Shown piece after piece: positions 20,601 to 20,678 of a DNA stretch of 42,237 bases (its first letter is position 1; each line of letters starts with the position of its first letter). Under the pieces are notes generated by a model. It worked only from the letters and a program-made list of their open reading frames with translations. It made no database searches and had not been told where the DNA came from. The DNA comes from a virus. Taxonomy: Duplodnaviria; Heunggongvirae; Uroviricota; Caudoviricetes. A program made the position numbers and the translations under genes. Location of the stretch: IMG/VR virus record IMGVR_UViG_2880361019_000002, positions 1 to 42,237 of that record. One strand, given 5' to 3'.

Positions 20601-20678
20601 TGGTGCGTTGTACTGGGTTCGAACCAGTGACCGATTGCTTAGAAGGCTGGCGTTCTATCCCGATGAGCTAATGGCGGT
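20601..20678 (-). tRNA. tRNA-Arg(UCU)-like sequence, probably defective/chimeric
   Basis: Perfect T-arm (ACTGG-TTCGAAC-CCAGT), CCA end, loop CTTCTAA, but 5-prime acceptor and anticodon-stem strands do not pair with their 3-prime partners. Confidence 0.4.

Follow-up and report, generated by a model that had tools for sequence, protein, structure and literature searches.

A probable argN/argO hybrid tRNA pseudogene, consistent with a 90-bp deletion, in the ileZ-argN-argO cluster of a lambdoid prophage

The DNA considered here, referred to as the window, is a virus record of 42,237 nt in its entirety (IMG/VR record IMGVR_UViG_2880361019_000002; Caudoviricetes), and the phage records nearest to it are JLK-2012, BP-4795 and AU6Stx1. 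The late region of the window has the layout of the Stx-type lambdoid phages, with a TerB-family ORF in the place of stx, and includes on its minus strand a tRNA cluster situated downstream of the late antiterminator gene Q and upstream of a nanS-p/holin/lysozyme lysis region (Table 1). The first gene in the cluster is ileZ, which the initial annotation took for a well-formed tRNA-Ile2(CAU), and this reading holds, as ARAGORN calls an ileZ-type tRNA and the Rfam tRNA model scores 72.5 bits at that position. Directly beyond ileZ, with a single spacer base (A, 20678) between the two, is a tRNA-like element that runs from 20677 to 20601 on the minus strand and has the sequence CCGCCAUUAGCUCAUCGGGAUAGAACGCCAGCCUUCUAAGCAAUCGGUCACUGGUUCGAACCCAGUACAACGCACCA. 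Although a tRNA-like stretch was correctly recognized there, the 78 nt first allotted to it include the spacer base, and the element itself is 77 nt long. A sigma-70 promoter-like site upstream of ileZ is a possible promoter of the tRNA cluster, as judged by its match to the consensus; the number of such sites (two found, compared with 1.4 expected in shuffled sequences) is weak when taken alone.

Table 1. Coordinates of the tRNA cluster, the tRNA-like element and its parts, and the neighbouring late-region features
Feature	Position	Strand	Basis
Late antiterminator Q, upstream of the tRNA cluster	21068-21556	-	Pfam Phage_antitermQ 8e-25; 99% identical to Stx2c prophage Q regions
Sigma-70 promoter-like site TTGCAA-17-TATCAT, ~10 nt upstream of ileZ	20764..20792	-	consensus match only
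ileZ-type tRNA, anticodon CAU, tRNA-Ile2/Met type, first cluster gene	20679..20754	-	ARAGORN; Rfam tRNA 72.5 bits; PGAP tRNA-Ile in relatives
Spacer (A), 1 nt, between ileZ and hybrid	20678..20678	-	spacing as in L019-type intact clusters
Hybrid argN/argO tRNA, probable pseudogene, 77 nt with CCA	20601..20677	-	alignment, Rfam, folding
5' part from argN (linear nt 1-30), with the 5' strand of the acceptor stem, the D-arm and the beginning of the anticodon stem	20648..20677	-	identical to tRNA-Arg(UCG) of L019, L024, L027, L032
Junction, 6-nt microhomology GCCTTC, canonical tRNA positions 30-35	20642..20647	-	alignments with intact clusters
3' part from argO (linear nt 37-77), running from the third base of the anticodon (U) through the 3' strand of the anticodon stem, the variable loop, the T-arm and the 3' strand of the acceptor stem to the discriminator A and CCA	20601..20641	-	identical to tRNA-Arg(UCU) 3' part in 24 IMG/VR contigs
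Weak terminator-like hairpin and T-run just after hybrid	20565..20592	-	consensus match; conserved after argO in intact clusters
TerB-family ORF, directly downstream of hybrid	20002-20463	-	Pfam TerB 1e-12; annotated TerB family protein in relatives
STnc100-like sRNA region	19647-19833	-	Rfam STnc100, 115 bits
SASA/NanS-p-type esterase	17662-19515	-	
Holin	17297-17617	-	
DUF1327 ORF	16948-17292	-	
Lysozyme	16364-16897	-	
Antirepressor	15395-16090	-	

Within the element, some parts of a tRNA are complete and others are not, much as had been described. The T-arm is indeed perfect, with the T-stem strands ACUGG and CCAGU pairing at 5/5 positions (ACUGG-UUCGAAC-CCAGU), the 7-nt CTTCTAA loop (CUUCUAA in the RNA) is intact, and the sequence ends in ACCA, i.e. 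with the CCA end that had been noted. Likewise, the strands said not to pair do not make stems; the acceptor strands CCGCCAU and ACAACGC allow 3/7 pairs (C2-G71, G3-C70 and U7-A66), and the anticodon-stem strands CCAGC and GCAAU allow 2/5. The D-stem, GCUC/GAAC, has three of its four pairs.

The parentage of the element was apparent upon comparison with the ileZ-argN-argO cluster of Stx and other lambdoid phages (Stx2a_F349, AP012530; phage 2851; the 933W type), which is located between Q and stx, in the same place as the cluster of the window. General statements on the three tRNAs near stx2 have been published (PMC7946995, PMC3491183). In the literature open to searching, nothing relevant on ileZ/argN/argO and no description of the allele discussed here was found. 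When the region was compared with phage genomes by BLAST, ileZ-argN-argO clusters of Stx phages were matched in two pieces, with ~323 nt facing a query of 229 nt, and alignment to the annotated Stx2a_F349 cluster gave a single clean gap of 90 columns having GCCTTC at its edges. The missing length is exactly 90 nt, which is the spacing of equivalent positions in argN and argO, i.e. one repeat period (the two genes start at 714 and 804 in locus L001 and at 6792 and 6882 in locus L019). Alignment with Stx2a_F349 and with four intact clusters (L019, L024, L027 and L032) bears out the fusion by argN/argO deletion that had been proposed, the 5' part of the element being argN and the 3' part argO. 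The GCCTTC at the junction is present in both genes, where its first two bases end the 5' strand of the anticodon stem, the next two are loop positions 32-33 and the remaining two open the anticodon. Since the last unambiguous argN base is the A at 20648 and the first unambiguous argO base is the T at 20641, which is the third anticodon base, the crossover falls within 20642-20647. The UCU anticodon that was initially read from the element is correct and comes from argO, whereas argN itself is a UCG tRNA according to ARAGORN.

Relative to the Stx2a_F349 genes, the hybrid has four differences, namely two in the argN part, one in the T-loop of argO and one at the discriminator base. These are not signs of decay after the fusion, because there are intact clusters that carry every SNP of both halves; therefore, of the original alternatives of a chimeric or a decayed tRNA, the first is upheld and the second is not, every base having its match in an extant, intact parental allele. 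Specifically, an intact argN with both of the hybrid's variants is present in 28 IMG/VR contigs, in 24 of which it is accompanied by an argO with the exact 3' half, in the 90-nt register. L019, L024, L027 and L032, four of the 24, additionally share the 1-nt spacer between ileZ and argN, and in clusters of this L019 type, nt 1-30 of the hybrid are matched by argN and nt 37-77 by argO at 100% identity. ARAGORN calls both Arg tRNAs in L019, and placing the 90 nt of L019 back into the window restores both genes exactly, with ARAGORN then calling Arg(tcg) and Arg(tct). Of the intact alleles, the L019 type is the likeliest parent. Because each half of the element matches, base for base, half of a real tRNA gene, the two genes being neighbours in related phages, the likeness of the element to a tRNA is not a product of chance. 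When identity to a known phage tRNA was sought in 50,697 phage genomes, no record had the whole element as one piece. All of the features of a deletion-fusion pseudogene that were tested were found, i.e. collinear halves, a 90-nt gap, sequence identity at the junction and rarity of the hybrid.

The pairing leaves the hybrid RNA with neither an acceptor stem nor an anticodon stem. As the acceptor and anticodon stems of argN and argO are unrelated, the 5' strands in the hybrid face the wrong 3' strands, and only the T-arm, which is wholly derived from argO, can form; the C·A mismatch of the D-stem comes from the L019-type argN allele. The cloverleaf of the hybrid contains 13 of 21 pairs, with an evaluated energy of +2.7 kcal/mol, compared with 20/21 and 21/21 pairs and energies of -21.6 and -21.4 kcal/mol for the parental tRNAs. 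The minimum free energy of the hybrid, -11.3 kcal/mol, is above the mean of shuffled sequences (z = +0.96). The Rfam tRNA model (RF00005) gives the hybrid 19.7 bits (E = 0.18), short of the gathering threshold of 29 bits, as against 72.5 bits for ileZ, 69.1 bits for argO and 44.4 bits for argN, the latter two taken from L019. ARAGORN made no sense-strand call at the hybrid from its default down to a 50% threshold, no canonical cloverleaf was found in any register, and a search with Rfam in E-value mode for an alternative register detected nothing else meaningful at the site. Of the defining features of a functional tRNA, the hybrid has a T-arm with a GTTCGAA-type loop and a CCA end, and it is without a 7-bp acceptor stem, a 5-bp anticodon stem, a score at or above the Rfam threshold and a gene-finder call, four lacks that place it outside the functional tRNA family. 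A tRNA on the opposite strand was also considered, given that ARAGORN reports an antisense 'tRNA-Gly(acc)' at thresholds of <=70%; this call was rejected as spurious, with a similar antisense artefact occurring on intact argO.

It is highly probable, from the alignments and folding together, that the element is a non-functional hybrid tRNA pseudogene of argN and argO that arose by a 90-bp deletion in an ileZ-argN-argO cluster. The ancestor would have been a lambdoid prophage having, downstream of Q, ileZ followed by argN (tRNA-Arg UCG) and argO (tRNA-Arg UCU). A 90-bp deletion at GCCTTC, joining argN positions 1-29 to argO positions 36-76, would have arisen between the two direct repeats, through either slipped mispairing or recombination at short homology. 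The resulting RNA probably forms a 3' trailer on the ileZ transcript, is not expected to be matured or charged, and would then be degraded by endo- and exonucleases. RNase P recognizes the stack of acceptor and T-arm, and the interactions of the CCA end and of the synthetases depend on the same stack; because this stack is missing from the hybrid, its transcript would be neither processed nor charged. Lack of function is, by sequence and folding, the most likely state of the hybrid, and the prophage would supply tRNA-Ile2 and neither tRNA-Arg(UCG) nor tRNA-Arg(UCU). In the intact cluster, RNase P cleavage at argN would occur 1 nt after the CCA of ileZ, and altered maturation of the ileZ 3' end is a speculative side-effect of the deletion.

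Set beside the Stx/lambdoid cluster, the window is alike in having the cluster downstream of Q and upstream of the nanS-p/holin/lysozyme lysis region, in an identical ileZ, in a terminator-like sequence downstream, and in the origin of the 5' 30 nt of the hybrid from argN and its 3' 41 nt from argO. It differs in that 90 nt are gone (the 3' half of argN, a 13-nt spacer and the 5' half of argO), in that there is one unfoldable hybrid instead of two functional tRNA-Arg genes, and in that the next ORF is of the TerB family rather than stx. The L019-type clusters (L019, L024, L027, L032 and those of O157 prophages such as that in CDC#03-98, with TerB downstream) share with the window all of the SNPs and the TerB flank; both of their tRNAs are intact by ARAGORN and Rfam, and their sequence upstream of ileZ is different. 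The tandem tyrT-tyrV genes of E. coli are a classical case in which one copy is lost by recombination or slippage at short direct repeats. In that case, as in the hybrid, exactly one repeat unit is lost between tandem, related tRNA genes; however, the tyr genes are near-identical and their loss leaves a working product, whereas argN and argO are different isoacceptors with unrelated stems and just 6 nt of homology at the junction, for which reason the product of the deletion is most likely dead.

Another form of argN occurs in a different prophage lineage. In locus L013 (9832-9935 of IMG/VR contig 2671180758_000015), an argN-like remnant is present between ileZ and argO; its acceptor pairing is intact (CCGCCAT...ATGGCGG), its interior is scrambled and has a G-run, and neither ARAGORN nor Rfam (E <= 1) calls a tRNA there. 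This remnant represents a second, independent route to the loss of argN. Some PPompW prophage records list 'tRNA-Met | tRNA-Lys | tRNA-Arg' at a similar locus, and these may correspond to the situation in L013.

The hybrid with its immediate surroundings (89 nt) is present uninterrupted and at 100% identity in 21 of 5426 complete E. coli genomes, and one further genome, that of strain 122, has a variant of it (98.8%). Sequence matching argN/argO in some form occurs in ~2180 of the same genomes. At the hybrid loci, in 22 genomes, the NCBI pipeline (PGAP) lists only tRNA-Ile, leaving the hybrid without an annotation in RefSeq. A 25-mer spanning the junction is present in six IMG/VR contigs and one gut metagenome contig, and there were no matches to the junction in the GTDB species-representative genomes (one genome per species), a search that gives no sign of the allele beyond E. 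coli-type prophages. These distributions, including six IMG/VR contigs with the hybrid as against 24-28 with the intact cluster of the same allele, indicate that the intact argN-argO pair is the common state and that the hybrid is rare and derived.

A comparison of 13 hybrid-bearing loci found ileZ to be identical in 13/13 and the hybrid in 12/13, with strain 122 differing by one base, and the 200 nt downstream of the hybrid were near-invariant in 11 of the 12 loci that are long enough to be compared. Upstream, the loci fall into three unrelated classes that diverge within ~40 nt of the 5' end of ileZ; the class to which the window belongs has a Q like that of the Stx2c phages, and the two others represent different antiterminator/DNA-methyltransferase contexts. 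Over 900 nt downstream, most hybrid loci are closest to intact clusters of the L019/L032 type. Among the 5426 complete E. coli genomes, none has an intact cluster that combines the upstream flank of the window with these SNPs, and when the hypothetical ancestor (the window plus 90 nt) was compared with complete E. coli genomes, the best intact clusters were 94.7% identical over part of the query. IMG/VR also had no hybrid with its joint in TTAGCTCA, a longer identity of 8 nt. Taken together, these data make it most likely that one deletion event took place in an L019-type cluster and that the allele then spread by mosaic recombination into at least three upstream phage backbones, with its movement between backbones probably occurring by homologous recombination at the invariant tRNA sequences. 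As an alternative to a single origin, there may have been recurrent identical deletions from the same allele, which would look the same at the junction.

Strain 122 was evaluated as a case of independent deletion. Upstream, this locus is of the window type, and it carries the hybrid as far as the T-loop; from the discriminator base onward, it has another type of flank. In its nearest intact relative, E2855, argN and argO have different SNPs and the spacer is 7 nt long. An independent deletion was ruled out, because here the same hybrid has recombined with a downstream flank of the E2855 type, the switch lying in the last 13 nt of the hybrid. Mosaic boundaries also coincide with the edges of tRNA genes in the window (20754-20800) and at loci L038, L040, L041 and L044. 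Lambdoid phages appear to exchange modules by crossing over at the invariant tRNA sequences.

Given such exchange, the hybrid might also have come about by unequal crossing-over between two co-resident prophages, the argN of one recombining with the argO of the other, instead of by intramolecular deletion or slippage. The opportunity exists, in that copies of the cluster occupy a median of 1-2 places per E. coli genome and up to 13, mosaic breakpoints do fall at or inside these tRNA genes, and the two flanks of the window have different affinities, with 99% identity to Stx2c phages upstream (Q to ileZ) and a resemblance to a different set of prophages downstream. However, both halves of the hybrid and the 1-nt spacer carry the SNPs of one L019-type haplotype, 90 nt apart, so that one parent is enough. 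Furthermore, the argN of the Stx2c type differs at two positions, and the reciprocal product (5' argO with 3' argN) had no matches in IMG/VR. Unequal exchange is hence judged to be unlikely, though it is the best placed of the alternatives to a deletion within a single cluster.

A second alternative would see the hybrid as a functional RNA under selection, whether as a non-canonical tRNA, as a decoy for anticodon nucleases or other tRNA-targeting defences, or as a structured 3' trailer that ileZ processing needs. In keeping with this, the perfect T-arm, the intact 7-nt anticodon loop with UCU, the discriminator A and the CCA have been kept, the sequence is 100% conserved at 12/13 loci despite their differing flanks, and the position between Q and the late genes is one that is transcribed. 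Yet, there is no stable fold (z = +0.96; cloverleaf at +2.7 kcal/mol) and, from what is generally known of tRNAs, an RNA without an acceptor stem has no RNase P/CCA-end minihelix and is no substrate for a synthetase, the identity elements for arginine being read in a folded tRNA. Nor is the conservation more than is expected for a recent allele, as the adjacent, non-coding 200-nt flank is almost as invariant. The allele is also rare (21-22 of 5426 genomes, versus ~2180 with intact sequences), and argN has been lost in another way in another lineage (L013), which suggests dispensability and not a new function. A role for the RNA in any of these forms is very improbable. The same low standing is given to the related idea that the allele was itself selected and for that reason carried into at least three unrelated backbones, either since loss of the tRNA-Arg genes is beneficial or since the trailer acts as a decoy or as an element in ileZ processing. 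The spread of the allele to at least three backbones, with most copies having no further substitution, could hint at constraint, but a recent origin accounts equally well for the absence of substitutions. Finally, the collapse of two similar tandem tRNA genes in sequencing or assembly has a negligible chance of being the explanation, since, although the genes are in tandem and partly similar and short-read assemblies do collapse tandem repeats, the identical blocks common to argN and argO are <=8 nt, far too short for collapse by an assembler, and the same junction recurs in independent contigs and in 21 complete genomes, which many laboratories produced on many platforms.

As a pseudogene left by deletion, the hybrid is an ordinary relic and not a new kind of RNA. 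Tandem tRNA genes are known to lose one unit in this way, and the finding is of small practical value and will not surprise a specialist. Nonetheless, the hybrid explains why some Stx-phage-like prophages are annotated with a single tRNA, it constitutes an unannotated pseudogene in ~0.4% of complete E. coli genomes, and it is a clean natural case of deletion at a 6-nt microhomology between the genes for different isoacceptors. Strains that have it are also natural knock-outs in which to ask whether phage argN and argO matter to the expression of late genes or toxin, because the ORFs are rich in AGA, AGG, CGA, CGG and ATA codons, yet both of the tRNA-Arg genes are lost. In a crude ORF set from the whole window (46 ORFs, 9546 codons), the frequencies per 1000 codons are 10.9 for AGA, 7.8 for AGG, 6.8 for CGA, 12.5 for CGG and 13.8 for ATA, and the values typical of E. 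coli are several-fold lower. AGA and ATA are about twice as common in the early/regulatory half of the window (>21000) as in the late half.

Several other aspects of the window bear mention. Ten nucleotides past the CCA of the hybrid, at 20590-20591 on the minus strand, the window is without 4 nt (CCCT, within TTTTCCCTCGCTCGC), at the 5' foot of the terminator-like hairpin. CCCT is present in the other TerB-flank loci that were compared, both hybrid and intact, the flank of strain 122 being unrelated there, and over 231 nt its absence is all that separates the window from the complete E. coli genomes closest to it. A homopolymer at 20517-20523 (C on the plus strand, G on the minus strand), which lies between the tRNA cluster and the TerB-family ORF, is 5 to 7 bases long in otherwise near-identical loci, and this tract, upstream of the TerB-family gene, may be prone to slippage. 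The TerB-family ORF, which in relatives is followed by a DUF3927 ORF, takes the slot of stxAB between the tRNA cluster and nanS-p, and it is annotated as a pseudogene in some relatives. The STnc100 match, a strong one, has the TerB/DUF3927 region on one side and the gene of the NanS-p esterase on the other, with the 3' third of the model aligning poorly. In addition, the lambda cIII thermoregulator element is matched over its full length at 35905-35963 on the plus strand of the window (88.5 bits), confirming that the early-left operon, which is lambda-like, is on the plus strand and hence that the minus strand holds the late genes and the tRNAs.
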